From the NCBI GenBank assembly GCA_022599915.1, contig JAHZLH010000065.1, positions 1,155 through 65,154 of the forward strand: DNA of 64,000 nt. Reading direction: 5' to 3'. The position numbers and the translations under genes are program-made. The notes under the pieces are model-generated. The model worked only from the letters and a program-made list of their open reading frames with translations, was not told the origin of the DNA and made no database searches. The stretch is from Actinomycetes bacterium. GTDB taxonomy: Bacteria; Actinomycetota; Actinomycetes; S36-B12; GCA-2699445. Numbering within the stretch: the first letter of the stretch is position 1; each line of letters opens with the position of its first letter. Of the stretch, positions 11,061 to 56,163 are shown in pieces.

Positions 11061-11942
11061 TCACCCGGTTGGGGGAGAAATTGCATCCGGCAACAGCCGA
11101 ACCGGCTGTCCCGGCACGAGTTGACCGCAACGATCGGTGTCATCGGCCGTAATCACACCGATAACCGGGTAGCCACCGGTCGTGGGGTGATCCGCTCCCA
11201 AGATGATCGGCTGACCATCGGGGGGCACTTCCACCGCACCACGAACCAAACCCTCGGACGGTAGCGAGCGATCTCGATATGCGGCGGCACGGGGCAGTGG
11301 GGTTCCCTGGAGCCGAACACCTACTCGGTCGATGCGAGGACTAACCTGCAGATCGCCACTGGCGAGTACCTGCCAGGCCGCCGGGTCGAACCAATCCGCG
11401 CGTGGTCCGGGGGTGAGGTGCAAGGTGACCACCTCCGTGGCCGGCGAGGGTACCGGGGCGCTGGCGACGATCGGGTCGCCGGCGATCGCGGTGCCGATGG
11501 GTAGTTGAGCGCCCGCGACTAGTGGGGGCGGCCCCAGGTGCGCCAGGGAATCCCAGGATCGTGACCCGAGCGTGGTGGCGACAGCAATCCCGCCGCGGAC
11601 CGCTAAGTAGCTGCGCAGTCCGCTGGTCGGTGGTCCGATCGCGAGTTCTGCCCCTGGCAGCATTCGAAAAACACTGTTGCGGCCACTGGCGGCGGTGCCC
11701 GCGGTGACCGGCCCTTGCGCCCCGGTCACGGCCACTTCGATCGCTCGGTCAGTGGTCAGCCGCAGTCCACCGGTTAGCACCTCAAGCCCGGCGGCGTACT
11801 CGGCGTTACCCACCAGTCGGTTAGCCAGTGCCAGGGCTGATCGATCGAAAGCGCCAGCCGGACCTACGCCTATGGCGGCGTAGCCGGGTCGACCTTGGTC
11901 CTGCACGGTTGTGAATGGCCCGGGCGCGACGACGGTGAGCAT
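11061..11942 (-). CDS. pxpC: 5-oxoprolinase subunit C (PxpC; allophanate hydrolase subunit 2 / KipA family)
   Basis: 293 aa. N-terminus TVQDQGRPGY..GV..AGA.D is typical of the AHS2/CT_A_B family. It follows pxpAB with a 1-nt overlap. Confidence 0.85.
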   Translation of the reverse strand: MLTVVAPGPFTTVQDQGRPGYAAIGVGPAGAFDRSALALANRLVGNAEYAAGLEVLTGGLRLTTDRAIEVAVTGAQGPVTAGTAASGRNSVFRMLPGAELAIGPPTSGLRSYLAVRGGIAVATTLGSRSWDSLAHLGPPPLVAGAQLPIGTAIAGDPIVASAPVPSPATEVVTLHLTPGPRADWFDPAAWQVLASGDLQVSPRIDRVGVRLQGTPLPRAAAYRDRSLPSEGLVRGAVEVPPDGQPIILGADHPTTGGYPVIGVITADDTDRCGQLVPGQPVRLLPDAISPPTG

Positions 11943-13318
11943 CAGGTCACCGGCTCGAATCGGACGAGGTCTCCGGCACGGATCGTGGCTGGATCAGCCC
12001 GCTCGGGATCGAACATAACTGCGTCGGTGCTTCCCAATAAGTGCCATCCGCCGGGTGAGGAAGTGGGGTAGATCGCGGTATAGCGATCGGCAATGGCGAC
12101 ACTGCCCGCGGGAACCTGAGTCCGGGGGGTAGCCAATCGGGGTAGATGCAGTGCCGGATCAGAGCCACTCAGATAGGCAAAACCAGGGCTAAAGCCAGTG
12201 AAGTCGGCGATGTAGTTCGGCTGAGTGTGGCGGTCGATCAACGCCTCGGTCGATATTCCCACGGTTGTGGCCACTGCCGCCAGATCGGGGCCGTTGTATC
12301 GAACCGGGATCACATGCTGGCGGGGGACTGGCTGCGCCGTGGTTCCGGCTGCGAGGCCAACTGCTCGGGCAGCTGTCGCTGCGGACAACTGCCTAGGGTC
12401 GAATCTCACCAACATCGTGGTCGCCGCAGGAACGACCTCCCGAATCCCAGGAATCGTGACGCTCACCAATGCCGCCAGTTGCCGACGCTGCTCAGGGTCA
12501 GGAAGCAGCAGCAGAATTGCATCGGCGCCAACCTGGCGGTAACGGGGAATGGTTGCTGACTGGGTATCAGCAAAGGCGGCGACCGTCACGTTGGCTGCCA
12601 GGAGCGCTTTCCGCACCTGACCAGCCAACGTCACCGCGTCGGGACTGTCGGAATGAAGGCACAGGCTGTCGGCAGAAATGCGTAGCTGGCCCCCGGTCAC
12701 GGTTTCGATCGGCGTGCGCCGCGCCAATGCCAACGCCCGGCGGGCCACGTCGGCTGGCGACGTGATCAGCGCATCGGGGAATCGCCGTGGCTGCAACGTG
12801 GCGTCGTCGGTGTAGCTCCGATCCACGAACGCCTCGGCGTAGCTGTGCAGACCGACCCGGTCAGCTGCGGTCACGAGTTGGCTATCGGGCAGGGTGAGCA
12901 CCGGCAGTCGGTAGCCCTCCAGCGCGTCCGCCACGATCTGAGCAGTGATCGGGTCGGCGGCCGCTCGGTTGTACAGTGCGCCATGCAGTTTGACGTAGCG
13001 CACTTGCGTGTCTGCTTGCCGAGCAGCCACGGTCAGATCGTTCAACTGGTCGGTGAGAGCAGCAGCGAGATCGTCCGCTGTGATCTCCATATCGAGCCGG
13101 CCAAAGTTCTCCCGATCGGGATACGACAGATGAGCACCCATGGCGACTGCATGCGCAGCTGCGGTCCGGCATACCCGCACCATGGAAGCGGCGTCACCAG
13201 CGTGTCCACCAGCGGCCACATTGGCACTGCTGACGATATTCAGCAGATCAGCATCGATCTGTTCTCCTGCCGCACCTGGGAGTTCACCCAAGTCGGCGTT
13301 CAGATCAATAGTCGTCAC
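11942..13318 (-). CDS. pxpA: Fused 5-oxoprolinase subunits A and B (LamB/YcsF domain + KipI/AHS1 domain)
   Basis: 458 aa. Residues 1-~250 carry the LamB/YcsF signature MTTIDLNADLGE...GGHAGD...KLHGALYN. Residues ~255-458 carry the PxpB/KipI pattern (GFSPGFAYL...IYPTSSPGGWHLLG). Confidence 0.85.
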   Translation of the reverse strand: MTTIDLNADLGELPGAAGEQIDADLLNIVSSANVAAGGHAGDAASMVRVCRTAAAHAVAMGAHLSYPDRENFGRLDMEITADDLAAALTDQLNDLTVAARQADTQVRYVKLHGALYNRAAADPITAQIVADALEGYRLPVLTLPDSQLVTAADRVGLHSYAEAFVDRSYTDDATLQPRRFPDALITSPADVARRALALARRTPIETVTGGQLRISADSLCLHSDSPDAVTLAGQVRKALLAANVTVAAFADTQSATIPRYRQVGADAILLLLPDPEQRRQLAALVSVTIPGIREVVPAATTMLVRFDPRQLSAATAARAVGLAAGTTAQPVPRQHVIPVRYNGPDLAAVATTVGISTEALIDRHTQPNYIADFTGFSPGFAYLSGSDPALHLPRLATPRTQVPAGSVAIADRYTAIYPTSSPGGWHLLGSTDAVMFDPERADPATIRAGDLVRFEPVT

Positions 13319-13347
13319 AGCGCCAGCCTAGGGCGACGCTGCGCAGT

Positions 13348-13424
13348 TGGGGTGAGTGACGGGACTTGAACCCGCGACATCCTGGATCACAACCAGGTGC
13401 TCTACCGGCTGAGCTACACCCACC
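13348..13424 (-). tRNA. tRNA-His (anticodon GTG)
   Basis: Reverse complement: extra G(-1), GTGGGTG acceptor, anticodon loop uuGUGau, T-arm GCGGG-TTCAAGT-CCCGT, discriminator C. A 3' CCA is encoded. Confidence 0.9.
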
Positions 13425-13539
13425 GTGGGCCACGGACGAACCGTGGCCTACCCAAGTGTAGCCGTCGTCGATCGCTACGGCGTGGCGGGAGGACGGCTGA
13501 GCGCGTGAAGAATCTCGGGGTAGGCAGCGTGGTCGCGGT

Positions 13540-14163: not shown

Positions 14164-14200
14164 ATCGGGCTAGGACGACGGAGTCGGACTCGACAGCGAG

Positions 14201-15070
14201 TCAGCGGACGATGGCCACCGTGGCATGGGCGTGATGAGCGACACCATGACTGACCGATCCCAGCAACAACCCCAAGAAACCACCCCTACCGCGCGAACCC
14301 ACTACGACCAGGGATGCGGACTCTGACGCCTCGACCAGTAGCTGTACCGGGTTGCCCTGTTGGTCGTCGAGCTGAATCTGCAGGTCGGGGTACCGCTCGT
14401 GCAGGCCCGACAGGGATTCGGCTACCGATCGGTAGTCACTCTCGCGTAGCTCCTGCAGCATTTCGGGGGAGGAAAAAGTGGGTACGCCGGTGATGACTCC
14501 CACCGGTGGTAGATCCCAGCCATGCAGGACTCGCAGCGTTCCACCGATTCGGTCTGCTTCAGCGGCCGCGAACTGCAAGGCCGATGTCGAGGCGTCCGAG
14601 CCATCGGCACCCACCACTACTTCCCGACTCGCTGGGTCGACAGAACGGCGCACCACCACTGTCGTACAGCGAGCATGACTAGCTACTTGCCGAGAGACGC
14701 TGCCGAGCAATAGTGAGGTGAAAGTTCCTCGGCCACGCGAACCGACCACCAGCATGTCGGCGTGTTGGGAGGACTCCACCAGCGCTCGAGCGGGACTCTC
14801 CCCAATCACATCACCGGTTGCGGCCAGCCCACGATCCTTAGCGATCTGCAGGGCACGCTCCATCAATTCATTGCCTAGATCCCGTTCCGCATCCAGCAGG
14901 GCCGGGTCCGCAGAGAGTTGTTCATTGCTGGTGAGATCCAGCGGTGGCAGCGCCCAAGCCACGACAATTCGCAAGTGCGCGCCGGAGTGTTGGACATGCC
15001 GGATCGCCCACTCCAACGCGTCGACAGATTCCGACGAGCCATCAAATCCGACAAGGACCGTTCCCGACAT
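14201..15070 (-). CDS. Universal stress protein, tandem Usp domains
   Basis: 289 aa with two Usp halves, each ending in the ATP-binding motif G(S)RGRG.F....LGSVS (twice). Confidence 0.85.
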   Translation of the reverse strand: MSGTVLVGFDGSSESVDALEWAIRHVQHSGAHLRIVVAWALPPLDLTSNEQLSADPALLDAERDLGNELMERALQIAKDRGLAATGDVIGESPARALVESSQHADMLVVGSRGRGTFTSLLLGSVSRQVASHARCTTVVVRRSVDPASREVVVGADGSDASTSALQFAAAEADRIGGTLRVLHGWDLPPVGVITGVPTFSSPEMLQELRESDYRSVAESLSGLHERYPDLQIQLDDQQGNPVQLLVEASESASLVVVGSRGRGGFLGLLLGSVSHGVAHHAHATVAIVR

Positions 15071-15232
15071 TTCGACCTCCCGGCGCAGCCGTTCCTAGTT
15101 CCCGCCACCAGCCTACTGTTATCCACCGTTGCAGTTGGGTAGGGCCGGTCACAGGAGTATCCTGAAAGAGAAGGGTGCAAGGCACCCGGCGGTGGAGTTG
15201 AGGTGCAGCCTTGTCCCGGTGGGAGGTGCATC

Positions 15233-16108
15233 ATGTCAAGCCAAGTTGTTCTGGGATATGACCAGTCGCCGATTTCCGATCTAGCTCTGGAATGGGCGGT
15301 AGGAGCTGCAGTTGAGCGCGGCGAGCCGTTGCGGGTCGTCGTGTGCTGGCAGGTCCCTGCGATGTTCGTCGGTACCAGTGTTGGGGTCGGCGTCGCGCCT
15401 GAGTCCGTCACCGGAATGGAAGCAGAGGCAGCCGGAGTGCTGGCCGAGGCGCAGGCCAAGGCGTCGGGGATGGCGCTCGATCTCGAGGTTCACGGTGAGA
15501 TTGTCGTCGGTAGTCCAGCGGCTACGTTGGTGGAGCAGTCGCGGCAGGCGTCGCTGGTGGTCGTGGGTTCACATGGCCGCGGTGGCTTCTCCGGTCTTTT
15601 GCTGGGAAGTGTGTCCCGCGAAGTCGCTACCCACGCGTCCTGCCCGGTCGCGGTGGTTCGTGAGCCAGCCACACCGGGGGCCAAAGAAATTGTGGTAGGT
15701 GTCGATGGCTCTGACCACGCGCTGCGGGCGTTGGACTTCGCCTTCGACTATGCCAGCCGCAAGTTTCTGCGGGTGCGGGTGCTACATGCCTGGGAGGTGC
15801 CACCATTAGCAGCGCTATCTTCCAGCCCCGAACTGACCGCGCACCAGTTGCTGCACGATCTAAAGGCGGCGGAAGCTCGGGCTACCGCGGAGGTGGTGGC
15901 GGGCCATTCAGACCGCTACCCCGATGTGGACGTGGTCGAGGAGATCGTCCACGGATCCACCATTGGCCAGTTGGTCACCGCCTCGGAGACTGCGGCAGCG
16001 GTTGTGGTCGGGTCGCGTGGCCGGGGTGGTTTCCTCGGACTGTTGCTCGGCTCAACCAGCCACGGGGTACTGCATTACGCCAAGTGCCCAGTAGTCGTTG
16101 TCCACTGA
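15233..16108 (+). CDS. Universal stress protein, tandem Usp domains
   Basis: Two Usp halves with GSHGRGGFSGLLLGSVS and GSRGRGGFLGLLLGSTS. ATG at 15233 is preferred over the track start 15203 because GGGAGG lies 7 nt upstream. Confidence 0.85.
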   Translation: MSSQVVLGYDQSPISDLALEWAVGAAVERGEPLRVVVCWQVPAMFVGTSVGVGVAPESVTGMEAEAAGVLAEAQAKASGMALDLEVHGEIVVGSPAATLVEQSRQASLVVVGSHGRGGFSGLLLGSVSREVATHASCPVAVVREPATPGAKEIVVGVDGSDHALRALDFAFDYASRKFLRVRVLHAWEVPPLAALSSSPELTAHQLLHDLKAAEARATAEVVAGHSDRYPDVDVVEEIVHGSTIGQLVTASETAAAVVVGSRGRGGFLGLLLGSTSHGVLHYAKCPVVVVH

Positions 16109-21438: not shown

Positions 21439-21489
21439 CAGATCATTGTCCAGTCACTCGCAGCAGGCGCTGACGGTGGTCGTCACAAT

Positions 21490-23190
21490 CTACTGAGCCA
21501 CGAATCTCTTGACGACGTCGGCGAGATCAGCTCGAGTGAACGGCTTGGAAATGAAATCGTCCATGCCGGCGAGTTGACTGCGCAGTCGATCGGCGTCACT
21601 GGTGAGCGCCGTCAAGGCAATGATGGGAAGCGCGGCCGCTACGAAGCCAGCCTGACCAGCTCTGATTGCCCGAGTAGTTTCGTAGCCATCGAGCCGCGGC
21701 ATACCGACATCCATGAGTACGAGTGCGTATTCGGTCGATCGGTTTAGCATGTCCAGCGCCTCCAGCCCGTCGGCGGCGGTGTCCACCTCAAATCCTAGCG
21801 AGCGAACAATCCCGCTGCCCAGATGACGGGCTACATCGGTGTCATCGACGAGGAGCGCCCGATTTCCCGTTCCCTGACGAGGCGGGGTGGACGGGGTTGC
21901 TGGGATTCGAGTAATGACGCCGTATTTGCCGCCACTGACGGACTCGCTGACAGATCCACCCGCTGCGGACACGATCTGTGACACCAAGGTGTGGCTACTG
22001 ACTCGGTCGGCTTCAGTTGCGGTGACGGAGATGTTGAGGTTGCCGCCGGACAAACTCAGGATCACCCGAACGGGTCCTGAGGTGTTAGCCAACACCAAGG
22101 CCACCGAAGCCTCGAATCCGGCTACCACGGCGGATAGATCAAAGAGCAGTTCCTGTTCGGCGCTTACATCTGTCGTCAACATGATCTCGCGTTGGGAGGT
22201 CGCGAGCAGCTGCGAAAACTCTTGCAGCGAAGGTTCCAGTACTCGGGCTGGTTCGGCTTCGACTGCCACCACCTCTCCGGTGGTGTAGTCCATCAGGTCC
22301 ATCAGGTCGTTGATGCGGGATGTCAGCCGATTTGTTGAGTCGGAGATGATTGCGCAGAGCGATTCCAGTTCAGAGCTCTTGTTAGCTGGTGCGGAATCAA
22401 CGGCATTCCGGATGGCGTGCAACGGCGTCAGCAACTCGTGACTCAAGGTAGCCTGCAGCGACTCCCGGGAGCGTGCTGCCTCATGTGCTCGGCTTCGGGC
22501 TCGGAGCAAGTCTTGGGTACGTTCCTCGACTTGGGCCGCTAAGCGACGTTGCGTTGACTCTCGGTCTTTCGCTCGGTTCTCCCGGTCGATGACGGCACCC
22601 AACTGTTGGCCCATCATCCCGGCACGATCCGGGTAACTGTCATCTGGTTCGGATGCCGTGGGTGCGAGTAGGACGATACTGCCCATCACGCCATCTGCAG
22701 TGAGCAGTGGAAAGCCAGCCGCTGATCCCTCGTCCAGTTCTTCCCCGTCGACGGCGAGTTCCTCCTTGCTTAGATCTGATATCCACAGCGAATCGGCCAG
22801 CGCTAGCGAGGCGATGCCCGCTCGTTTGCTCTTGCCGGTCTGGTGCGCCGCAGTTCCCATGTTGGGGAGGCGGTCCGGATTGCCCACCCGATAGACAGCC
22901 TGCAGCTGAGGATCACCCTCCCCTTCCTCGACGTGCTGCAGCATGAACGCCACGCCGACATCCCAGGGTCCTAAATGCACCAGAATTGGCAATACCTCTC
23001 GCAGCGCATCGGAGGTGCTGTGGGCTTGGTTGGCAACGGCCGCGACTTGAGCGAGCAGATTCAAGTTGCGGTTGGAAAGATATAGCGAGCGAAGCGTTTT
23101 TTCGGCAATCTCTTCAGCCGCTTGCCGAGCTCGACGTTCTCTGTCTAGGCGGCGCCGCAACAGTTGGTCATTATCGTCAGGCGTGGTCAT
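21490..23190 (-). CDS. Hybrid sensor histidine kinase (coiled coil-GAF-HisKA-degenerate ATPase-receiver), H-NOX associated
   Basis: H-box LSHELLTPLHAIRN. C-terminal receiver (LLVDDTDVARH...MDVGMPRLDGYETTRAIR...ALTA..K). ATG at 23190 (MTTPDDND) is preferred over the track start because it overlaps the H-NOX stop by 14 nt. G1/G2 glycine boxes are not recognisable. Confidence 0.8.
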   Translation of the reverse strand: MTTPDDNDQLLRRRLDRERRARQAAEEIAEKTLRSLYLSNRNLNLLAQVAAVANQAHSTSDALREVLPILVHLGPWDVGVAFMLQHVEEGEGDPQLQAVYRVGNPDRLPNMGTAAHQTGKSKRAGIASLALADSLWISDLSKEELAVDGEELDEGSAAGFPLLTADGVMGSIVLLAPTASEPDDSYPDRAGMMGQQLGAVIDRENRAKDRESTQRRLAAQVEERTQDLLRARSRAHEAARSRESLQATLSHELLTPLHAIRNAVDSAPANKSSELESLCAIISDSTNRLTSRINDLMDLMDYTTGEVVAVEAEPARVLEPSLQEFSQLLATSQREIMLTTDVSAEQELLFDLSAVVAGFEASVALVLANTSGPVRVILSLSGGNLNISVTATEADRVSSHTLVSQIVSAAGGSVSESVSGGKYGVITRIPATPSTPPRQGTGNRALLVDDTDVARHLGSGIVRSLGFEVDTAADGLEALDMLNRSTEYALVLMDVGMPRLDGYETTRAIRAGQAGFVAAALPIIALTALTSDADRLRSQLAGMDDFISKPFTRADLADVVKRFVAQ

Positions 23191-23722
23191 GCCACTCGAT
23201 TCGGAGCATGCAACTGGAATCGCCGTTGTGCTGACATTTCGGTTGTGAGATGGAAATCGTCTCACCGAAGTAGTCAGCACAGCCGAACGTCAGTCCCTCA
23301 GCCAGGAAGCAGAGTTGTCGTTGGGATACGTATTCGATGTCCAGCGCACCGGTGCCACTGTCGTGCTGCTGAAATACTGGCACATCCGCTCCCGGGTAAA
23401 GTTTGCGAACTTCTGGGTGGATGACTTCGTTCAGTGACAGGACAAAATTCCGCGCCGAAGTGTGACCGGTAGCCATCTCCGGATAGCGCTGCATCAGCCA
23501 GGGAAAGCCGCGGCGTCCGACGAATCGGACGACATCCGCTGGGGGTAAATCGAGTTTTTCCGAGGCCGCTGTCACGATTGCACTCAACTCATCGACCGAG
23601 TAGTCCCCGAGGGCGGTATAGGCGCCGTCCAGTTCCGCGGCAGCGAGTAGTTCATCCCAGACGTCGGCACCAAACTCGTCCGCGACGGTGTGTTCAACGA
23701 CGTTGAAGATGATCCCTTTCAC
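23177..23722 (-). CDS. H-NOX (haem-nitric oxide/oxygen binding) sensor protein
   Basis: 181 aa stand-alone HNOB domain. It has the N-terminus MKGIIFNVVEHTV...VWDELL, the proximal-His context NEVIHPEVRKLY and the haem-propionate motif Y-V-S-Q-R (YxSxR). The C-terminal ...C.H.G...C.L.IE pattern matches proteobacterial H-NOX proteins. Confidence 0.85.
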   Translation of the reverse strand: MKGIIFNVVEHTVADEFGADVWDELLAAAELDGAYTALGDYSVDELSAIVTAASEKLDLPPADVVRFVGRRGFPWLMQRYPEMATGHTSARNFVLSLNEVIHPEVRKLYPGADVPVFQQHDSGTGALDIEYVSQRQLCFLAEGLTFGCADYFGETISISQPKCQHNGDSSCMLRIEWHDHA

Positions 23723-23974
23723 GAGACTCCCGATCGCTGGTCAGCAGCGGGATTACTGCTGTGGGTCTACGTTATTGCCATCCGGTGTCGTAGTCACCCA
23801 TCTGGCTTCACTAACCGAAAATGGGGGATCGCTGATGGTGACTGACTGCAACTGCGGACTACTCGGCATGGTGGGTATGGCCGTTGGCGAGTGCCTCGCC
23901 GATGCCGTCTCCGACGCCGACACTGTCGTCGGCGGATTCCAGTCGGCCGACGCGCCCGCTAGCAGCTTGTCGTG

Positions 23975-25632
<1,658 letters not shown>

Positions 25633-25770
25633 TGGGACCCTCCAGATCGAGCGTCACTTTAGCCCGGCCGGTTGCCGTAAATACGGTTGGGGTGTCCGAA
25701 TGAGGTACGGATCTCAGGTTGCCGGTGTCGGCGAAGTGCTCCGCGCGGCGATTCCCGCAACAATGCCTGT

Positions 25771-38912: not shown

Positions 38913-40268
38913 TCACTTGGCAGCTGGGAACTTCACGTGGAAGACCGTGCCACCGCCTTCGCGGTCGGTGAGCCACAATTCAGCACCATGCGCCGCCGTC
39001 ACATCCCGCACGATCGACAGTCCCAATCCGGAGCCAGGAACCCCGCGTGACTCCACTGGTCGATAGAACCGGTCGAAGATTTGTTCGCGATCTGCTGCGG
39101 GAACGCCAGGACCCCGATCAGCAACGCTGAGTTCACGATCGTGAACGTGAATATCGATCGCTGCGTCACTGTCGTCGAACTTGATCGCATTGTCGACCAG
39201 ATTCCACACCGCACGCTCCAAAGCTGCCGCATCCGCCAACACGGTGGTGTCATCGGCATCGATGTTGATTCGCCGCCCAGTACGACGATTGGCGCGGGCT
39301 GCTACTCGTTCCACCACATCCGCCAGTACGATCAACTGGTGCTCGGCGCTGCTGCTGACTCCGGCGGCCGCTTCCAAAAGTTCAGTCACCAAAGTCGCCA
39401 GTTCTGCCGACTCGCCCTGTAGGTCGGCGACGACCCGTTGCTGGACTTCGGGATTGAGTTCGGTAAATCGCTTGAGCAGGGCGACGTTGGTGCGAATCGA
39501 GGTCAATGGCGTCCGCAGTTCGTGACCGGCATCCTGCACGAGCCGCTGTTGCTCCGCCTGAGATCGAGCTAATCGGGCCAGCATGGTGTTGAAGGCATTT
39601 GCCAGTTGACCTACCTCATCCGTGCCGGCCCCGGGAACCGTCACGTCCAGTCGACCCGTTTCACTCACCTGCACTGCTGCTGTGGTGAGCGTTTCTAGTC
39701 GACCGGCGATCCTGCGGGCCAACAGCCAGCCGATCAGCGCTGCCACCAAGGACAGTGCAATGGCCAGCCCGGTCATGATGAGCGCCAGTGAACGCAGCAC
39801 GGCAGCCTGCTCGCTCCCGTCTCGGCCGACCATCAGGGCCGCTTGACCGTTGCCATTCGTAGTGGTGACGATTCGGTAGGGGACACCATCGATGTCTTGG
39901 GTGCGGGCGATATAGATCGAGCGTGGTTCGCTTGCCAACTCGACGTCGACCGGAGTGGGCGCGAGCGATGGATCGCCGCGTAGCGGTAAGTAGGTGCCGT
40001 CACTATCAACTTTCGTTACCAACAAGCTCCGATCCTGGGGCGGTAACCTTTCGCCACCTGGTCGACCTGGTCTGTCACGACCAGATCCCGGCAGCAGCTC
40101 ACCCTCTCGCGGGCCACCGAGAATTCGTTGTCCCGCAGCTAGCAATGCCTCGTCGACTTCGGACGTGATGCGGGAGGCCACCGCAAAGTACCCCAGTGCG
40201 CCCATCAGCAACGCCACCACGGCAGCCAGTGCCGCAAAGGTAATTGCTAGTCGGGCCCGCAGTGTCAT
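38913..40268 (-). CDS. Two-component sensor histidine kinase (HAMP-HisKA-HATPase)
   Basis: H-box AGHELRTPLTSI, N-box VWNLVDNAIKF, G1 DRGPGV, G2 GSGLGLSIV. ATG at 40268 forms an ATGA overlap with the regulator stop. Confidence 0.85.
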   Translation of the reverse strand: MTLRARLAITFAALAAVVALLMGALGYFAVASRITSEVDEALLAAGQRILGGPREGELLPGSGRDRPGRPGGERLPPQDRSLLVTKVDSDGTYLPLRGDPSLAPTPVDVELASEPRSIYIARTQDIDGVPYRIVTTTNGNGQAALMVGRDGSEQAAVLRSLALIMTGLAIALSLVAALIGWLLARRIAGRLETLTTAAVQVSETGRLDVTVPGAGTDEVGQLANAFNTMLARLARSQAEQQRLVQDAGHELRTPLTSIRTNVALLKRFTELNPEVQQRVVADLQGESAELATLVTELLEAAAGVSSSAEHQLIVLADVVERVAARANRRTGRRINIDADDTTVLADAAALERAVWNLVDNAIKFDDSDAAIDIHVHDRELSVADRGPGVPAADREQIFDRFYRPVESRGVPGSGLGLSIVRDVTAAHGAELWLTDREGGGTVFHVKFPAAK

Positions 40269-40939
40269 GACGCCCGCAAGCTGTAGCCGACGCCGCGGAC
40301 TGAGCGGATGAGTTCGTCTCCCGGTGCGGAAAGTTTGCGTCGCAGATAGCCCACGTAGACCGCGAGGTTCTTGGATTCCGATCCGAAGTCGTAGCCCCAA
40401 ATCCGCTCATAGATCGTCGAACGTTCCAGTACGATGCCGGCGTTGCGCATGAGCAGTTCCAGCAAGTCAAACTCTGTTTTGGACAGTTCGATTTCAGTGG
40501 CGCCCTGCCAGACCCGGCGAGAGTTGGGCGATAGCCGCAACTCACCGACGCGAAGGTCCGCGGAATCGTTGCTGGCGGTGGAGCGTCGCAACAGCGCACG
40601 CAGGCGAGCCAGTACTTCGTCTAAGTCGTAGGGCTTGGTGACGTAGTCGTCGGCGCCAGCGTCTAGTCCCGCTACTCGATCGGCAGTCTCGACCCGGGCG
40701 GTGAGCATCAGAATCGGAATTCTGTCGCCCTCGGCCCGCAGCAGTTGGCAGACGCCCAATCCATCGATACCTGGCATCATCACGTCGAGCACCATGATGT
40801 CCACCGGGTCGGTCCGGTAGGACGCGAGTGCTGATACCCCATCGGTCGCGGTCACGACCTCATACCCCTCAAGTTGCAGTGCGGCGGCCAGCGAATCTCG
40901 GATCGCTCGGTCATCGTCTGCGAGTAGCACTCGGTTCAT
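40265..40939 (-). CDS. OmpR/PhoB-family response regulator
   Basis: 224 aa. Receiver (VLLADDD...DVMMPGIDG...LTA) plus a winged-helix output domain (LSKTEFDLLELLM...RSVRGVGY). Confidence 0.9.
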   Translation of the reverse strand: MNRVLLADDDRAIRDSLAAALQLEGYEVVTATDGVSALASYRTDPVDIMVLDVMMPGIDGLGVCQLLRAEGDRIPILMLTARVETADRVAGLDAGADDYVTKPYDLDEVLARLRALLRRSTASNDSADLRVGELRLSPNSRRVWQGATEIELSKTEFDLLELLMRNAGIVLERSTIYERIWGYDFGSESKNLAVYVGYLRRKLSAPGDELIRSVRGVGYSLRAS

Positions 40940-41009: not shown

Positions 41010-42110
41010 CTAGGCGGTTGTCGTCTGCTCTGCTGAGTCTTCAGAGTCGGGAGATCCACCAGGACCACCGGGGCCACCTGGACCACCAAATCCTCCGGGC
41101 CCACCCGGACCGCGGTGGTGCCGACCCTCACCTCGCTCCGGGAGTTCCTCGGTGTCGAGGACCTTGAACTGCTTATTCAGCTTCACCAGCACACCGCCGT
41201 CATCAGTACGGACGATCACGTAATAGCGGTTCCCCTTCTGGACCGCGCGCATAGCAGTCCCATCAACCGCTGCCGTTGCCGCCGACTCAGCTTTCCGCTC
41301 GGTATTGCCGGTGAGTGGCTTGCCTGGTCCACGCTTCGCCTTCATGATCTTCTGCACAGCAAACTCGCTATCCAATAAGACGACTCGTTTCTTGCCCGAC
41401 TGCATTTTCACAAAGACTGCATAGCCACCATCGGTTTTGCTGAACACCTGCTTCGGCTCGCCGTTCGGCAGCGCTTCTTGTGCAGCGGCTTTGGCCTGCT
41501 CCGCGGCTTCACCGGTGACCGGCTCGCCCTTGGGCCCCCTGCGGTCAGGCAGATCCTTGACCTCTTCCACCGCGTAGTTCTCATCCAGCAACACCACGAC
41601 TCGGTTACCGTCGTCATTGGTCATCCCCACCGCGTAGCCGCCATCCGGTCGGGCAAAGACGTGGTGAGCGGTGCCCCCCGATACTTCGGCTTCTGCGGCC
41701 GCGGTGGCCTGTTCGGCGGCTTCACCGGTCACCGGCTCGCCCTTGGGGCCGTGGCCGCGACGATCGCCCAACTCCTTGACCTCTTCTGGTTCGAAGTTGT
41801 CCGTCAGCAACACGACGACGCGTTGGCCGTCGGCGTTGGTCATACCCACGGCGTAGCCGCCGTCGGGTCGGGCGAAGACGTGGTGAGCAGTACCCCCCGG
41901 CACCGCGTCTGTCGCGGCAGTCTTGGCTTGTTCGGCGGTTTCACCGGTGACCGGTTCACCCTTGGGTCCGTGCGGTCCTCGGTGCTGTCGCTCCGACTGC
42001 GCACTCTGGCTACCGTCCTGCGCGTTGGCCAGGCCAATCCCGCCCATCGCCGCTGCCGTGAGGGCAATAGCACCAGCGCCGACGCCCAAGGCTGCAATCT
42101 TGTTATTCAT
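41010..42110 (-). CDS. Secreted protein with four tandem PepSY domains and a GPGG-rich tail
   Basis: The unit KGEPVTGEAAEQA.AAA...GGTAHHVFARPDGGYAVGMTN.DG.RVVVLL...EVK.L repeats four times. Signal peptide present. ATG at 42110 has GGAGGA 7 nt upstream and is preferred over 42149. Confidence 0.75.
   Translation of the reverse strand: MNNKIAALGVGAGAIALTAAAMGGIGLANAQDGSQSAQSERQHRGPHGPKGEPVTGETAEQAKTAATDAVPGGTAHHVFARPDGGYAVGMTNADGQRVVVLLTDNFEPEEVKELGDRRGHGPKGEPVTGEAAEQATAAAEAEVSGGTAHHVFARPDGGYAVGMTNDDGNRVVVLLDENYAVEEVKDLPDRRGPKGEPVTGEAAEQAKAAAQEALPNGEPKQVFSKTDGGYAVFVKMQSGKKRVVLLDSEFAVQKIMKAKRGPGKPLTGNTERKAESAATAAVDGTAMRAVQKGNRYYVIVRTDDGGVLVKLNKQFKVLDTEELPERGEGRHHRGPGGPGGFGGPGGPGGPGGSPDSEDSAEQTTTA
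41139..41981 (-). repeat. Four tandem ~70-aa PepSY-coding repeats
   Basis: Units 1 and 2 are near-identical at protein level. Units 3 and 4 are progressively diverged. Confidence 0.6.
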
Positions 42111-42218
42111 CTCGATTCCTCCAGGTTTCCCTTTGGTTGTCGAGTTCACTGTTCACCCGCTGATTCAGAGAGCGTCGTGATCAGGGTAAGGGTCAGGAAA
42201 GAATCCAGACTTTCTCGA

Positions 42219-48966: not shown

Positions 48967-51249
48967 ATGGCCATTGATGTGCCGAGGTTCCGCTCCGACT
49001 ATCACGTGTCTTCGATCCCCGGTCAGGGAATCTTCCTGCTGACCGAGGCGCTGCCTATCGTGTTGAACGGTGAAATCTATGAGGCGATCTGTCCATTGAT
49101 TGACGGCCAACGCACGGCTAGCGAGATCGCAGCAGAGTTATCGGACAGTGTGAGTGCGGCCGAGGTCTATTACGGTCTGGCGAAATTGGAAGAACGAGGA
49201 TTCATCGAGGAAGTGGTGGCTGCACTCGATCCGGGGGTCGCTGCGTTTTGGCGAGGTGTTGGGCAAGATCCGGAACAGGCATTGGCACGGTTGGCAGAGC
49301 AACCAGTACAACTCGTCACGCTCGGCGCCATCGATCGGGAACATACAGAAAATGTGCTTGCAGCCGCCGGCGTCCATCTTGCCGAGGATGGTTCCCGCAC
49401 CGTTGTCTTCGCTGATGACTATCGATACCCGGAACTCGATGACATCGACGCGAAAATGTTCGCTAATGAAGGGTCCTGGGCGCTGGTCAAGCCCACCGGT
49501 ATCTACCCGTGGGTTGGGCCGTTCCTGCAACCGGCGAACGGTGGTTGCCTGCGCTGCCTGATTGATCGAATCAACATGAACTACATGGCGGACACGTTCG
49601 TGTTGGAGCAGTCGCGCATCACACCGGTGACGGCTCGTGCCTACAACCAGGCCGGTGTTGCGGCGGTCTCGAACTTGGCAGCAGTGGAACTAGCGAAATG
49701 GATCGTGTCGGGGGAAAGCCACCTCGTCAATGAGTTGGTATCGCTGTCGATGAACACCATGCGGTTGGACCGACACTCGCTGACTCCGCGACCGCAATGC
49801 CGCCGGTGTGGTGAGCCCGACTACCGGGAACGTCGCACCAAGTTCCGTGAGCCCACCTCGATCGACTTTCAGTCCCGGCCGCATTTGCATATCAGTGACG
49901 GCGGTCACCGTACTGCCACTGCCGAGGAGACGCTGGAGCGATATTCGCATCTAGTCAGTCCGATTACTGGTGTGGTGTCGCGATTGGAGAGCGTGGCGCA
50001 GCAAGACCACCCATTGGTGCATGCATATTCCGCCAGCCACAACTGGGCAACTCATCCAGACAGCCTGTCCTTCATGCGGCACACATTGCGCTCCCAAAGT
50101 GGTGGCAAAGGCACCTCGGAAATCCAGGCCAAAGTTGGCGCGATGGCCGAGGCGTTTGAGCGCTACAGCGGGGTGTTCCGGGCCGATGAAATCCGCAAGC
50201 GGGCGACGCTAGCGGAGATGGAGGCCGAGGGGCTGGAAATTCTGCTGCCGCAGGAGATTCTGCTGTTCAGTGATTCGCAATACCAGCGGCGGGCGGACAT
50301 CAACGCTGAGGGAAATAGTTTCCAGATTGTGCCGGAACCGTTCAACCCCGAAATGCCTGCGGATTGGTCGCCAGTATGGGCCCCCACTTCAGATCGTTTC
50401 GTGTGGTTGCCGACGGGTCTGCTGTATTACTCGTACAGCAAGCTGGCGCCGCATGACACTCCCAACCGGCTGGCTTACTACGCCGATTCCAATGGCTGCG
50501 CAGCGGGAAACAGCAAAGAGGAGGCAGCTCTGCAAGGTCTGTTGGAACTCGTAGAGCGCGACGCAGTTGCCACCTGGTGGTACAACCAGGTGCAGCGCCC
50601 ACAGGTAAATCTCGACGACCTCGATATTCCGTATCTGGCACAGTTGCGTGATTGGCTGGACTCCGAGGGTCGGGACCTGTGGGTGCTCGACATCACCAAC
50701 GACATTGGTATTCCATCCTTTGCTGCGGTATCGCGGATTCGCGAACCTGCGGACGATGGCAGTGAAAAAATCGTGGTCGGCTTCGGTTCCCATCTGGATC
50801 CGCGAGTCGGAATCATGCGAGCAGTAACCGAGGTGAATCAATTCTTCGCGAGTCTGTTTGCCTTAGGTGAACAGGACTTGAGTCGTGCTTTCGACCCGGG
50901 TGCGGTGGATTGGTGGGAGAACGCTTCTACCAGTGAAAAGAAGTATCTGCTGCCGCTTGATCAACCAGGCGTGAGGTTCGAGGACATCCCGAACCTTGCC
51001 AGTGACGATCTACTTACCGAGTTGAACACTGCTATCGAGATGGTGGAAGCGCGTGGGTTGGAAGTGCTGTTGCTGGATCAGACTCGGCCTGATGTGGAGT
51101 TCCCGGTGATCAAAGCACTTGTGCCGGGGATGCGTCACTTCTGGTCCAGGCTGGCTCCGGGGCGACTCTTTGATGTGCCGGTGGAGTTGGGCTGGCTGCC
51201 AGAGCCGCTGGCTGAGGGTGAACTCAACAAAACGCCGATCTTCTTCTAG
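48967..51249 (+). CDS. Fused TOMM cyclodehydratase (leader-binding winged helix + E1/ThiF-like domain + YcaO domain)
   Basis: 760 aa. The N-terminal winged-helix-like segment (IDGQRTASEIAAEL...YYGLAKLEERGFI) is followed by an E1-like part with CLRC ... CRRC zinc-type pairs. The YcaO/SagD-like region (GGKG...AMAEAFERYSG...ELVERDA) ends in a Pro-containing tail KTPIFF. Confidence 0.85.
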   Translation: MAIDVPRFRSDYHVSSIPGQGIFLLTEALPIVLNGEIYEAICPLIDGQRTASEIAAELSDSVSAAEVYYGLAKLEERGFIEEVVAALDPGVAAFWRGVGQDPEQALARLAEQPVQLVTLGAIDREHTENVLAAAGVHLAEDGSRTVVFADDYRYPELDDIDAKMFANEGSWALVKPTGIYPWVGPFLQPANGGCLRCLIDRINMNYMADTFVLEQSRITPVTARAYNQAGVAAVSNLAAVELAKWIVSGESHLVNELVSLSMNTMRLDRHSLTPRPQCRRCGEPDYRERRTKFREPTSIDFQSRPHLHISDGGHRTATAEETLERYSHLVSPITGVVSRLESVAQQDHPLVHAYSASHNWATHPDSLSFMRHTLRSQSGGKGTSEIQAKVGAMAEAFERYSGVFRADEIRKRATLAEMEAEGLEILLPQEILLFSDSQYQRRADINAEGNSFQIVPEPFNPEMPADWSPVWAPTSDRFVWLPTGLLYYSYSKLAPHDTPNRLAYYADSNGCAAGNSKEEAALQGLLELVERDAVATWWYNQVQRPQVNLDDLDIPYLAQLRDWLDSEGRDLWVLDITNDIGIPSFAAVSRIREPADDGSEKIVVGFGSHLDPRVGIMRAVTEVNQFFASLFALGEQDLSRAFDPGAVDWWENASTSEKKYLLPLDQPGVRFEDIPNLASDDLLTELNTAIEMVEARGLEVLLLDQTRPDVEFPVIKALVPGMRHFWSRLAPGRLFDVPVELGWLPEPLAEGELNKTPIFF

Positions 51250-51257
51250 GGACGGGT

Positions 51258-52658: not shown

Positions 52659-52688
52659 TTCGATCGCGCGCTAGTCGGCGGCGCCGTC

Positions 52689-53231
52689 CTAGCCACGCAG
52701 TCGTTCCATGGTGGCGTGCTGAATCGCGAGGAAGTCGATATCAGCCACGGGAGTATTCCGGCAGTTGCCATCAGTCACGACAACGGCGCTAGCTAGTGAC
52801 CGCTCCACCCATCGATGTTCATGCGTCACCAGTACTGCCGTCATCCCCTCATCGGCTGCGGCCAGCAGCCGGTCGTGGATCGCGGCGGTGACCTCTGGTG
52901 CGATGGCTTTGGTGGGCTCATCCAGCAGGAGCGCGGCCGGCGATTGCTCGAGCAGGTGATCGATCTCGGCTAGCCGAGCGGCGCCGGTTCGAGACGACCA
53001 ATCTTGACCATGGATCGGATAATCGCCGCCACAAAGTTCCCCGTTGACCTCTCCGGCTGTGGGCTGGATCTGCTCGGCGAGCACCTTCAGTAGGGTGCTT
53101 TTCCCCGCACCGGAGGCACCGATGATTGCGGTGACCGTGCCTTGCGAAATCTCCAGATTGACGTCGGTCAGCACCCGCTTGCGGTCAAGGTCAGCGGCGA
53201 CGCCTTGCAGCGTCCAAGCGTTAGTGGTCAC
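52689..53231 (-). CDS. Short degenerate ABC-type ATPase (about 180 aa)
   Basis: Walker A GASGAGKST, Walker B LLLDEPT and H-loop VTHEH are present. The helical subdomain is almost absent, and SSRTG replaces the LSGGQ signature. The proposed GTG start at 53231 overlaps the upstream ABC stop by 11 nt. The upstream part of the track ORF (to 53708) is an out-of-frame shadow. Confidence 0.6.
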   Translation of the reverse strand: MTTNAWTLQGVAADLDRKRVLTDVNLEISQGTVTAIIGASGAGKSTLLKVLAEQIQPTAGEVNGELCGGDYPIHGQDWSSRTGAARLAEIDHLLEQSPAALLLDEPTKAIAPEVTAAIHDRLLAAADEGMTAVLVTHEHRWVERSLASAVVVTDGNCRNTPVADIDFLAIQHATMERLRG

Positions 53232-56163
53232 TGGCGTCGTCAGTGGCCGAGGATGAATCAGCGTCGGTGCTGTCGGTGCTGTCGGTGCTGTCGGACTGCG
53301 ACTCGGGCGAGGGTTCGGCCTTGGCGTGCTTAGCGGCCTTGGTGCTCGACCCGTCCGCTGACTTGCTGCTGGTTTTCTTTGAGCCGGCTGACTGATCGGA
53401 TGATGACTTCGCGTTCTCGGTGGTATCCCCGGCAGCAGACTTACTCTTATTCTTACTCGCGCTCTTCTTATGGTCACCGCCACCGCCACCGCTGGCAGCG
53501 CTGGTCGAGTCCTTCTGATGGGTGGCCTCGCCGGTTGTGCCAGCCGAGTCGTCGTCGGCGGGAGCAGCAGGAGGTGAATCACCACCTGCCGCCTCGGCTT
53601 GGTCCTCGTGGAAGCCGGTGAGATCTCGCTTAGCCAGTTTGGCGAACTCGCCCTTCTTGGCCATGAGTTCGGTGTAGGTGCCCTCTTCGACCACGCGACC
53701 GGCATCAATCACCAGGATTCGGTCAGCGCTCTCGATAGTGGAGAGACGGTGAGCAACAATGATTCGAGTCGCACCCAGTGCGTTCATCGCGGCGGTGACT
53801 TTCGCCTGTGCGACATTGTCCAGCGCACTGGTGGCCTCATCCATGATGATGATCGAGGGATTTCGCACCAACGCCCGAGCCAACAGAATGCGCTGCGCCT
53901 GACCGCCGGAAATCAGCGATGGATCGACCAGGGTGTGCATCCCCATCGGCATCGCCCGGATGTCATCAGCCAGCGCCGCTGATTCTGCAGCCTGCCACGC
54001 GGCCCCTTCGTCATAACCAGCGCCACCCATGATGTTCTGCATCATGGTTGCCCGCATGATCTGACCGTTCTGCACCACGACCCCCATCTGTCGGCGCACG
54101 AGATCTGGATCTAGGTCGGACAGCGGACGTTCGTCAAAGAGGATTTGGCCGTCCTCTGGTGAGTCAAAACCCAGCAACAACCGGATCGTGGTGGATTTTC
54201 CCGAGCCGGAGGGGCCGGTAAGGGCAACCATTTCGCCGGGCTTGACATGAAAGCTCAGGTTGTCCAGCACGATGGGGGTGTTCTTCTCGTACCGATAGCG
54301 GACCTTGGTGAGCTGAATGTCACCGGTCAATCGACCGGGATCGGACTTGTCGGAGGTTACCGCCGGGACGTCGTCCATGATCGGGCGCAATAGTCGGAAA
54401 ATTGGTGCAGCCGAACCAATGGGGAGCAGGACTGAGGTCAGCGCGGTCAGTGCACCGAAACTCGCGCCGAACGCGCTGAGCAGCGCGAGGAAGGTTGCGG
54501 ATGAGACGTCAGGGGTCCCCGGCCCGGATCGGGTCTTAATCATGAAAATGAACAGGGCGGTGGCGAAACTGGTGGCGAACAGTGTCCACCCTTGGACTTT
54601 TCCGAAGACATTGGTCATCCGCGAGATGGCCACAACCTGATCGCGGACCAGATCGAGATAGCGGCCCTGCATTCTGGTCGTGGCTCCCGCAAGACGCACC
54701 TTACTGATGCCCGACAGCACCTGGATGACCCAAGAGGTCGAGGTCAACTGTGCGGTGATGGATTGCCAGTACAGCTTTTGCACTGTCCGAACCGCAAAGA
54801 TCCCGATGACCACGGTCACGATAATGACGACTAGCCCGGCCAGCCCGAGCGCAAAATCGTAGTAGAACATCAAACCGATGTTGACCAGGGCGAAGACCGC
54901 GGCGAGTACACCGCCGATCACCTGCACGTTGATGATCTGTTGGAAGGCGTCCACGGCCATGACTCGTACGGAGAGGTCACCGGAGGAGAACTTCTGGAAA
55001 AACGCCACCGGCATAGCGAGTACTCGATCCCAGAAGGCAGTCTGCACCCGCTCGATAGCGCGCTGGGAGATTCGAGACATGGCTCGGTACTGCACGAAGG
55101 AGAAGACCCCGGCGGCTAGCGCAGCCGCAGTCAGTGCCACCCCTGCCTGAACCAGCAGGTTGGTGTCTTGGTTGGGGACGATGGAGCCGAGGACAACGTT
55201 GGTCAGGATCGGAGTCAACAGGCCGATAACGGCCACGACCGCAGCCAGACCGATGGTCCACAGCCATTCCCGCCGCATACCTGAAACTGCCAGCCGGGCC
55301 ACATCCCTGCTGGTCACTGGCCGATCGCGATCCAGGGTTGGGTAGAACTGCATCGCATTTTCGTTCAGGTCCGCAGCTCGGTCGGGTGTCAGCGGCGTAC
55401 CCGGGTCGAGCGGGCCGGTGCGAAGGAGGTATCCCTTGCCGCCTGGGATCAACGCCACCGGGGTGCCGTCGTTCAGTGACTGGTCGAGAGCCAAGAAGGC
55501 GTGAGCTCGAGGCTGCTGCCAGTTCCCGGTCAGCTTCACCGGCCGGACCCTGATCCCGGAGGCATGAGCAATCCCTTGGAGTTGCTGCATCAGGTCGCTG
55601 TCTTTCGGGGTGCTCACCGGCCGACGAACGGTGAACCCTTCGAATTCACCGACCAGTCGAATCACCGCCGTGAGCGAGTCATCGGCGGGCTCGTCGAGAT
55701 CCTCGGATGGATTCTTGATGGCCAATGCCGCTCGGCGGTAGGACCGATCCAGGTTCTTGGTGTCAGCTTGGTAGGCCTGCTGGCTGATGTTTCGTCGCTC
55801 GGTGAAGTAGGCAGTGACTGTTTGTTGGTAGAAGTCGGCAAGATCTGAGCCAGTCTGATAGTTCACCGCGGCCAGTGATTCCAGGTATTTGCTGGCATCA
55901 GGAGTACCGCTGATTGTTGTACGGCTGATGCTGGCACCGATACGCGGCACCACCAGCAAACTCGTGTGATCGGCTCCCGGCACTAGTGCAGGAGCAGTCA
56001 ACGTCACCAACGGCACCAAGGTTCCGGAATCAGCTTTGACAAAGATGTCAGCAACTCCGGCATCGAGTGATGCGGCGGTTGTCGCATCGGTCAGCAGGAT
56101 GGCATCACGTTCCGACATTGCCGCCATCACCCGCCTCAGCGACGAGTCGGAAATACTCGCCAT
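53221..56163 (-). CDS. NHLP-type bacteriocin export ABC transporter, permease/ATPase subunit 2 (no active peptidase), with long low-complexity tail
   Basis: 980 aa. A ~280-aa N-terminal accessory region is followed by a 6-TM permease and an NBD (GPSGSGKST, LSGGQAQR, IIIMDEATSALD). The last ~150 aa are Ser/Asp/Lys/Ala-rich. Alternative starts are at 56127 and 56118. Confidence 0.85.
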   Translation of the reverse strand: MASISDSSLRRVMAAMSERDAILLTDATTAASLDAGVADIFVKADSGTLVPLVTLTAPALVPGADHTSLLVVPRIGASISRTTISGTPDASKYLESLAAVNYQTGSDLADFYQQTVTAYFTERRNISQQAYQADTKNLDRSYRRAALAIKNPSEDLDEPADDSLTAVIRLVGEFEGFTVRRPVSTPKDSDLMQQLQGIAHASGIRVRPVKLTGNWQQPRAHAFLALDQSLNDGTPVALIPGGKGYLLRTGPLDPGTPLTPDRAADLNENAMQFYPTLDRDRPVTSRDVARLAVSGMRREWLWTIGLAAVVAVIGLLTPILTNVVLGSIVPNQDTNLLVQAGVALTAAALAAGVFSFVQYRAMSRISQRAIERVQTAFWDRVLAMPVAFFQKFSSGDLSVRVMAVDAFQQIINVQVIGGVLAAVFALVNIGLMFYYDFALGLAGLVVIIVTVVIGIFAVRTVQKLYWQSITAQLTSTSWVIQVLSGISKVRLAGATTRMQGRYLDLVRDQVVAISRMTNVFGKVQGWTLFATSFATALFIFMIKTRSGPGTPDVSSATFLALLSAFGASFGALTALTSVLLPIGSAAPIFRLLRPIMDDVPAVTSDKSDPGRLTGDIQLTKVRYRYEKNTPIVLDNLSFHVKPGEMVALTGPSGSGKSTTIRLLLGFDSPEDGQILFDERPLSDLDPDLVRRQMGVVVQNGQIMRATMMQNIMGGAGYDEGAAWQAAESAALADDIRAMPMGMHTLVDPSLISGGQAQRILLARALVRNPSIIIMDEATSALDNVAQAKVTAAMNALGATRIIVAHRLSTIESADRILVIDAGRVVEEGTYTELMAKKGEFAKLAKRDLTGFHEDQAEAAGGDSPPAAPADDDSAGTTGEATHQKDSTSAASGGGGGDHKKSASKNKSKSAAGDTTENAKSSSDQSAGSKKTSSKSADGSSTKAAKHAKAEPSPESQSDSTDSTDSTDADSSSATDDASDH

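Follow-up and report, generated by a model that had tools for sequence, protein, structure and literature searches.

A putative NO-sensing H-NOX protein encoded with a kinase-like partner that lacks ATP-binding boxes in a planktonic actinobacterium

What could a haem-based gas sensor control in an actinobacterium when the kinase-like protein encoded beside it lacks the sequence boxes that bind ATP? This question is raised by a 64,000-nt stretch of contig JAHZLH010000065.1 (positions 1,155 to 65,154; hereafter the window), in which hnoX, a gene for a protein of the H-NOX (haem-nitric oxide/oxygen binding) family, overlaps a gene whose product, here called the partner, combines a HisKA domain with a receiver domain. 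The original prediction, made from the letters alone, was of a stand-alone H-NOX translationally coupled to a hybrid kinase, located after amt-glnK where glnD is usual, and possibly acquired horizontally. The hnoX open reading frame (ORF) of 181 aa is present at 23177..23722 on the minus strand with a GTG start, and the three strings quoted for its product, MKGIIFNVVEHTV, EVIHPEVRKLY and YVSQR, all occur in the translation. The partner ATG lies at 23190 and the hnoX stop codon occupies 23177-23179, giving an overlap of 14 nt in keeping with the proposed translational coupling; the same overlap is found in the gene calls of five other metagenomic contigs with an identical protein. We propose, with moderate confidence, that hnoX and this gene for a pseudo-kinase with a receiver form an operon at the input end of a nitric oxide (NO)-responsive phosphorelay in a planktonic actinobacterium.

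23177..23722, minus strand: hnoX, stand-alone H-NOX haem sensor, 181 aa, GTG start (Pfam HNOB and Shewanella structure matches)
21490..23190, minus strand: partner gene, 566 aa, with an N-terminal module (N-module), HisKA, a degenerate catalytic and ATP-binding domain (pseudo-CA) and a receiver (REC) (Pfam, alignments A2 and A6)
23727..23731, minus strand: Shine-Dalgarno sequence GGGAG, 5 nt 5′ of the hnoX GTG (from the sequence; CGGGAG in the related loci L001 and L002)
23177..23190, minus strand: 14-nt overlap of hnoX with the partner gene, from the stop of the one to the ATG of the other, ATGACCACGCCTGA (read from the sequence)

The host is an actinobacterium; the exact proteins are held at NCBI under a metagenome-assembled genome (MAG) labelled 'Actinomycetia/Actinomycetes bacterium', as MCH9719689.1 ('heme NO-binding domain-containing protein') for the hnoX product and MCH9719688.1 ('response regulator') for the partner. 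One genome per GTDB species was scanned with alignment A1, which holds 26 H-NOX family members, and at least 541 loci were found. The nearest species genomes by H-NOX among them were a Candidatus Nanopelagicales MAG (73% identity) and a marine Micrococcales MAG (68%). The locus-level counts, neighbourhoods and tree given below are those of the best-scoring 80 of these loci.

Judged by its match to the family profile, the hnoX product is almost certainly a genuine H-NOX. The profile search that had been suggested with the original prediction matched Pfam HNOB (PF07700) over the full domain, residues 2-159 aligning with profile positions 1-162 of 163 and scoring 117.7 bits where the cut-off is 25.5 (E=6.3e-34), which together with the NCBI label bears out a stand-alone H-NOX in an actinobacterium. 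No NCBIfam model matched the protein. Among solved structures, the best sequence matches were to H-NOX of Shewanella woodyi and of S. oneidensis (4u9b, 2kii; E∼1e-31). Alignment A3 includes the H-NOX of S. woodyi and Tt H-NOX, the latter checked as identical to PDB 1U4H. His102 aligns in A3 with Tt His102 (soluble guanylate cyclase β1 His105) and is invariant in the 26 members of A1, while Y131, S133, R135 and P115 (Tt Pro115) are invariant across both alignments.

23417..23419, minus strand: codon of His102, predicted proximal haem ligand (A1, A3)
23318..23332, minus strand: Y131-V-S133-Q-R135, haem-propionate motif (A1, A3)
23208..23311, minus strand: C-terminal zinc-site region with Cys138, Gln160, Cys163 and Cys171 (A1, A3)

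Stable O2 binding by H-NOX proteins needs a distal Tyr. The O2-network residues W9, N74 and Y140 of Tt H-NOX correspond in A3 to V9, G72 and L140, and with Leu at the Tyr140 position of a non-polar distal pocket the protein is predicted to be NO-selective, binding NO (and CO) without a stable O2 complex. An O2-sensor reading was dropped because the distal Tyr is absent. At the C-terminus, Cys138, Cys163 and Cys171 are invariant in A1 (n=26) and nearly so in A3, which holds the Cys-free Tt H-NOX, and Gln160 stands at the position of S. oneidensis His161, the fourth zinc ligand there. Three Cys with His or Gln at this position is given in a 2020 sequence-network study as the zinc pattern of network groups 2 and 3 (PMC7108781). 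By its residues, the window H-NOX is a member of the group 3 zinc-site subfamily, with a predicted zinc site.

The partner departs from the kinase of the original prediction. By Pfam it contains HisKA, Response_reg and a weak GAF_2 match (E=0.005), and no HATPase_c match was obtained, either with the full-length protein at E≤0.01 or, with the threshold relaxed to E≤10, with the isolated 140-aa region in which that domain would lie. When the partner was aligned with canonical hybrid kinases (A2), about 27 residues were missing, spanning the DxGxG (G1), F and GGxGxGL (G2) boxes; the strands and helices that flank this stretch were retained. An AlphaFold2 (AF2) model of residues 236-440, with a mean pLDDT of 80.7, consists of a pair of long helices joined to an alpha/beta domain. 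A Foldseek search with it returned histidine-kinase DHp-CA cores (E∼1e-9); RetS (6dk7, 6dk8, 7n0e) was among the top matches and DivL stood at rank 49. HisKA and REC are present, but the ATP-binding domain, a defining feature of the hybrid kinase family, is not found here, so 'hybrid kinase' is a misnomer for this protein.

22486..23190, minus strand: N-module, residues 1-235, a strongly conserved helix (R14..L46) followed by a GAF-like domain, proposed docking module (phmmer)
22276..22476, minus strand: HisKA/DHp, with His251 in SHELLTPL (Pfam HisKA, E=5e-9; two long helices in the AF2 model)
21871..22275, minus strand: pseudo-CA; the ATP lid is deleted together with its G1, F and G2 boxes, and a degenerate N box is left (A2; no HATPase_c)
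21505..21861, minus strand: REC, with the acceptor pocket D449, D450, D494, T527 and K549 intact (Pfam Response_reg, E=4.5e-22)

The loss is shared by relatives. PF02518 is absent from the proteins of the window, L001 and L002 and, by precomputed Pfam annotation, from all full-length relatives in the protein database, P0131 and P0152-P0156, which are 31-99% identical to the partner; it is present in every more distant match, and the profile score falls from 704 to 321 bits at the boundary between the lid-less proteins and those carrying PF02518. In an alignment of nine pseudo-kinase proteins (A6), His251, Thr255, Pro256, Asp449, Asp450, Asp494, Thr527 and Lys549 are invariant. Since His251 and the REC residues stay invariant at 30-50% identity, the architecture is under selection and maintained. 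A reading of the partner as a decaying pseudogene was dropped, the frame, His251 and the REC residues being kept down to 30% identity. A profile search with the nine pseudo-kinases revealed no further ATP-lid-less member among the matches listed (from at most 8000 word-sharing candidates); proteins of the L020 and L056 type were themselves not retrieved by it, and the number of family members is accordingly a minimum. As a separate observation, the pseudo-kinase gene of one locus, from a Micrococcales MAG (L016:3900-5700), is split by a frameshift into N-module plus HisKA and pseudo-CA plus REC; the assembly may be at fault, or the gene may truly be a pseudogene.

The outputs encoded downstream of this H-NOX subfamily vary widely. 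GGDEF-EAL is found in 41 of the 80 loci, a true HisKA-HATPase-REC(-REC) in 12, a kinase without a receiver in five, a partial GGDEF in three and GGDEF-HD-GYP in two; 11 outputs were not assigned. The ATP-lid-less partner accounts for the remaining six (L001, L002, L016, L020, L040 and L056), all from Actinomycetota. Of the 78 genes directly 3′ of hnoX, 70 encode an N-terminus homologous to the N-module of the window partner, regardless of output (phmmer E 1e-59 to 5e-6), and GAF_2, weak in the window partner, is strong in the GGDEF-EAL partners. We infer that the N-module is the docking site for H-NOX. In the tree, the window clusters first with L001 and L002 and then with L016, L020, L040 and L056, all from Actinomycetota. 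The H-NOX proteins of the pseudo-kinase loci form a single clade, so that sensor and partner have co-evolved, and among the best 80 of at least 541 loci the ATP-lid-less variant appears confined to this one actinobacterial clade.

The sister loci carry further candidate relay genes. An OmpR-type regulator lies directly 5′ of hnoX on the same strand in L020, L040 and L056 (89% mutual identity), and a membrane HisKA-HATPase-REC-Hpt kinase of the GacS type lies directly 3′ and convergent in L016, L020 and L056 (65-68% identity). These loci may hold a plausible complete four-gene NO relay in which H-NOX and the pseudo-kinase modulate a real kinase. They span L020:5307-10630, L056:5239-10621, L016:3425-9190 and L040:4052-6987, with the hybrid kinase at 8225-10630 in L020 and the regulator at 5239-5922 in L056.

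In the mechanism that we favour, NO would bind the haem of H-NOX, as predicted from the pocket residues, and H-NOX would dock on the helix and GAF-like domain of the N-module, through which a conformational change would pass, as their co-occurrence suggests. From alignment and model, the partner keeps the DHp His and the receiver beside a CA-shaped domain without an ATP lid; such a domain implies a protein that cannot autophosphorylate, and we consider it likely that the partner does not. In its DHp we read H-E-x-x-T as a motif of the E/T phosphatase type. If RetS-GacS and ChpT/Spo0B are a guide, His251 and Asp494 might accept, pass on or remove phosphate in the pathway of another kinase, and NO-bound H-NOX might switch the phosphotransfer, phosphatase or sink activity of the partner. 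The relay partners would be encoded next door in the sister lineage and elsewhere in the genome in the lineage of the window.

Known systems share parts of this arrangement. The H-NOX/HnoK systems of S. oneidensis and Vibrio cholerae likewise have a stand-alone H-NOX of ∼180 aa with a proximal His, YxSxR, a non-polar pocket and a three-Cys site, and in the window, as there, hnoX lies immediately 5′ of a HisKA-containing partner. The window H-NOX, however, is 38% identical to that of S. woodyi (A3) and falls in group 3, not group 2, and the partner, unlike HnoK, shows no ATP-binding boxes and has the helix and GAF-like N-module and a fused receiver. In the H-NOX/HaCE pairs (S. woodyi; Legionella Hnox1-Lpg1057), H-NOX controls GGDEF-EAL enzymes. 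This is the arrangement that dominates the subfamily of the window, including most of its Actinomycetota (Solicola, Conexibacter, Mycobacteriales, Acidimicrobiia), and its GGDEF-EAL partners share the N-module of the window partner; with HisKA, pseudo-CA and REC instead of GGDEF-EAL, no direct cyclic di-GMP (c-di-GMP) output is expected in the window.

Among proteins without ATP binding, ChpT of Caulobacter (PMC3433190) and Spo0B of Bacillus are histidine phosphotransferases of kinase-like build. They resemble the partner in a DHp-like His hairpin and a CA-like alpha/beta domain that binds no ATP. Both differ from the partner in having no fused receiver and no sensor module, and neither is among the Foldseek matches listed. 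RetS of Pseudomonas aeruginosa, a hybrid kinase-like antagonist of GacS, like the partner joins a DHp-CA-shaped core without ATP binding to receiver domain(s); it siphons phosphate and blocks GacS dimerisation (PMC8498467). The likeness between the two is one of generic kinase fold only, at 15-17% identity, and RetS sits in the membrane, senses through a periplasmic domain, and has two receivers and an inactive lid loop that is kept, whereas the partner is soluble, has its lid deleted and would take its input from a separate H-NOX. A specific RetS-like role for the partner is suggested by this analogy, and we hold it tentatively, at somewhat below even chances.

Several points weigh against the proposal of an NO-responsive phosphorelay and its parts. 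Haem, NO and zinc binding by the H-NOX are all predictions from its residues, and the assignment of the N-module as docking site has co-occurrence as its one basis. The Foldseek TM-scores were moderate (0.5-0.64), and canonical ATP-binding kinases matched the model about as well as RetS did, so the search indicates a kinase core fold rather than a specifically RetS-like one. The tree is a neighbour-joining tree of the 80 loci without support values. None of the window, L001 and L002 has a phosphodonor kinase, Hpt or cognate regulator beside its pair, and tblastn of the 64-kb window with the L020-type kinase-Hpt and the L056-type regulator gave generic matches of 28-37% only, which fall on a HAMP kinase/OmpR pair at 38.9-40.9 kb and on the REC of the partner itself. 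In the sister loci, the convergent hybrid kinase could be plain synteny. The kinase and regulator at 38.9-40.9 kb are the only other two-component genes of the window:

38913..40400, minus strand: HAMP-HisKA-HATPase_c kinase, a generic relative of the hnoX system
40265..40939, minus strand: OmpR-type regulator, a generic relative of the hnoX system
41010..42149, minus strand: PepSY-domain protein adjoining this two-component pair

Of the alternatives, the one that survives best is that the H-NOX acts mainly as a haem-independent thiol/zinc redox sensor reporting oxidative stress rather than NO. The fully conserved pattern of three Cys and Gln would suit such a role, and a reversible disulfide at the zinc site is described as regulating the kinase in two papers (PMC7108781, PMC8738867). 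The haem-free V. cholerae H-NOX senses redox in vitro, but the in vivo relevance of this mode is unproven even in Vibrio (PMC8738867). The haem-binding residues are likewise invariant across the family, and the haem and thiol modes are not mutually exclusive, such that redox might also be a parallel input; as the main function it is unlikely.

A second alternative concerns the neighbourhood of hnoX. As the original prediction pointed out, the pair stands on the strand and in the position where glnD would be expected, amtB-glnK-glnD operons being known from Corynebacterium, Streptomyces and Mycobacterium. The pair might therefore replace GlnD and, co-transcribed with amt-glnK, tie PII signalling and the uptake of ammonium to the sensing of NO. 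The genes and the element that bear on this are as follows.

23975..24313, minus strand: glnK (Pfam P-II, E=7.9e-32)
24310..25632, minus strand: amt (Pfam Ammonium_transp, E=1.7e-124)
23769..23797, minus strand: promoter-like element, −35 GTGACT at 23792-23797, 17-nt spacer, −10 TAACGT at 23769-23774 (alignment A5)

Both amt and glnK lie 5′ of hnoX on the same strand, and the order amt-glnK-hnoX-partner is conserved in L001 and L002, with identities of 88-92% for amt, 68-73% for H-NOX and about 49% for the partner. glnD was not found in the 64-kb window, and a terminator scan of 21300-25800 found none in the glnK-hnoX gap; a hairpin 3′ of glnK is no more stable than shuffled versions of it (z=−1.05) and was not called a terminator. 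These observations favour a replacement of GlnD, as does a divergent amt-glnK beside hnoX in a third locus, L053. Against it, these three are the only loci of the 80 with amt/glnK near hnoX, and the sister pseudo-kinase loci have other neighbours, namely a regulator, a hybrid kinase, an oxidoreductase and a major facilitator superfamily (MFS) transporter. The promoter-like element is the sole conserved block in the 252-nt glnK-hnoX spacer of the window, L001 and L002 (A5) and is followed by the conserved CGGGAG. Actinobacterial −10 elements are of the type TANNNT, which TAACGT fits. We read the two blocks as the putative promoter and ribosome-binding site of hnoX itself; a strict σ70 promoter scan of 21300-25800 called no promoter, this element included. 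An Rfam scan of 21000-26500 (E≤1) gave no match, and thus no riboswitch, for c-di-GMP or otherwise, is indicated 5′ of hnoX. Tyr51, the usual target of GlnD on GlnK, is retained in the translation of glnK, suggesting that GlnD is encoded elsewhere in the genome. The adjacency to amt-glnK is lineage-specific synteny; the remark on the position of hnoX was thus accurate as a statement of position and carries no more than that, and a replacement of GlnD is quite improbable.

A third alternative is that H-NOX gates a conventional autophosphorylating hybrid kinase that passes phosphate to its own receiver, in the manner of S. oneidensis HnoK or Vibrio HqsK. The partner has a HisKA domain with His251 and an intact REC, and the 12 loci with a true HisKA-HATPase-REC pair the same H-NOX subfamily with kinases carrying the same N-module. 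However, the missing HATPase_c match, the deletion of G1, F and G2 with a degenerate N box, and the sharing of this loss by relatives at 30-50% identity leave this reading very unlikely.

The composition of the region at 21.5-23.7 kb, a check suggested with the original prediction, was within the range of the window. GC along the window is flat. Over 35 window genes, third-position GC content (GC3) averages 0.693 (sd 0.040); hnoX, at 0.648, and the partner, at 0.647, lie somewhat below this (z about −1.1) and resemble other regulatory genes in the window. The recent horizontal acquisition of the pair from Proteobacteria by chance insertion after amt-glnK, which the original prediction had raised, can accordingly be set aside as extremely improbable: the closest relatives of solved structure are gammaproteobacterial and the subfamily tree mixes phyla, so that old transfers did occur, but the composition is unremarkable, identity to Shewanella H-NOX is 38% (A3, S. 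woodyi), the nearest relatives are the Nanopelagicales and Micrococcales MAGs with the same gene order, the whole pseudo-kinase clade is actinobacterial, and no recent transfer is indicated here.

The preferred reading, an NO-responsive phosphorelay entered through hnoX and its pseudo-kinase, thus concerns a sensor that is itself ordinary. A word-indexed protein search returned 1861 homologues of the H-NOX at E≤1e-5, and those with names among the best 120 include Solirubrobacterales, Thermoleophilaceae, Acidimicrobiales and Actinomycetota MAGs; an earlier genome scan with exact peptides of the window H-NOX found no relative. Actinomycetota account for 29 of the 80 best loci, including the cultured Solicola sp. 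PLA-1-18, and the others come from Proteobacteria, Chloroflexota, Acidobacteriota, Verrucomicrobiota, Gemmatimonadota and further phyla. One of them, L024 (CAZCBE010000036.1), belongs to a MAG labelled 'uncultured Klebsiella sp.'; its H-NOX clusters with Verrucomicrobiota and its partner is a histidine kinase with a receiver, and the bin label looks doubtful.

In print, Lee-Lopez & Yukl 2022 (PMC8738867) and their 2020 sequence network (PMC7108781) list members from Acidimicrobiaceae, Nocardioidaceae, Micrococcaceae and Mycobacteriaceae, and group 3 of the network holds Mycobacterium sp., Caulobacter and Pseudomonas sequences (PMC7108781). According to the 2022 paper, several Actinobacteria have group 3 H-NOX genes, none of them characterised experimentally (PMC8738867). 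These are of the same subfamily as the window H-NOX, with the same motif of three Cys and His or Gln. Neighbourhoods are given in these papers as Pfam frequencies (GGDEF, EAL, kinase/regulator), and the ATP-lid-less partner and the shared N-module are not described in the available text. The original prediction had held that H-NOX signalling is not characterised in Actinomycetota, and had named, as what would count against it, a survey finding H-NOX/kinase pairs widespread and already described in the phylum. As regards experiment the statement agrees with this literature; as regards the genes, their wide presence in the phylum, named as counting against it, is largely borne out by the annotation, the papers and the 29 loci, without an accompanying experimental description.

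Further genes were noted in the window. A deoxyribodipyrimidine photolyase-related (DPRP, cryptochrome-like) gene at 25771-27258 on the plus strand is divergent from amt and is also present in L002 (70% identity). DUF7507, SpaA_4 (prealbumin-like) and DUF11 domains recur in a surface protein of 1449 aa (29144-33493, plus strand), which also has a linker rich in Pro and Thr, with TPTPSPTQTG repeats, and a C-terminal hydrophobic anchor; a second, smaller protein of that kind (DUF5979/DUF7601) is encoded at 61564..62808. The 562-aa ORF at 34978-36666 (minus strand) has a normal GC3 of 0.716 and no Pfam match at E≤1e-4. A 5-oxoprolinase-like set at 11061-16108 comprises CT_A_B (11061..11942) and a fused LamB/YcsF and CT_C_D (11942..13318), accompanied by an RNase T-like exonuclease and divergent tandem-Usp proteins (14201..15070, minus strand; 15203..16108, plus strand). 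The region 48967-58345 is likely a cluster for a ribosomally synthesised and post-translationally modified peptide (RiPP) of the azoline/thiazole type:

48967..51249: YcaO cyclodehydratase with an N-terminal winged helix-turn-helix
51258..52658: ThcOx/nitroreductase-type oxidase
53221..56163 and 56105..58345, minus strand: a pair of ABC exporters, of which one carries a C39 peptidase domain
58342..59178: HlyD-like protein

For the subfamily, the findings describe a wiring in which one helix and GAF-like module has had varied outputs swapped onto it, and they provide a docking hypothesis for the contact between H-NOX and its effectors. The physiological inputs of RetS/GacS-type networks are generally poorly defined, which would make one that is entered by a known gas a useful case. 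In its boldest form, which we regard as speculative and rather unlikely, the proposal is that this clade turned an H-NOX-associated kinase into an ATP-blind, NO-gated phosphate siphon or phosphotransferase acting on a GacS-like phosphorelay, with the N-module as a universal docking domain of group 3. If true, the partner would be the first effector of an H-NOX that neither synthesises nor degrades c-di-GMP and is no autokinase, and the system, from Gram-positive plankton, would be the first multikinase network of the RetS type whose gas input is defined. Through an ATP-blind partner, NO signalling would re-route phosphate within a multikinase network. The pair would also be a first handle on Gram-positive H-NOX signalling in abundant aquatic plankton, in waters where nitrifiers, denitrifiers and nitrite photolysis are sources of NO.

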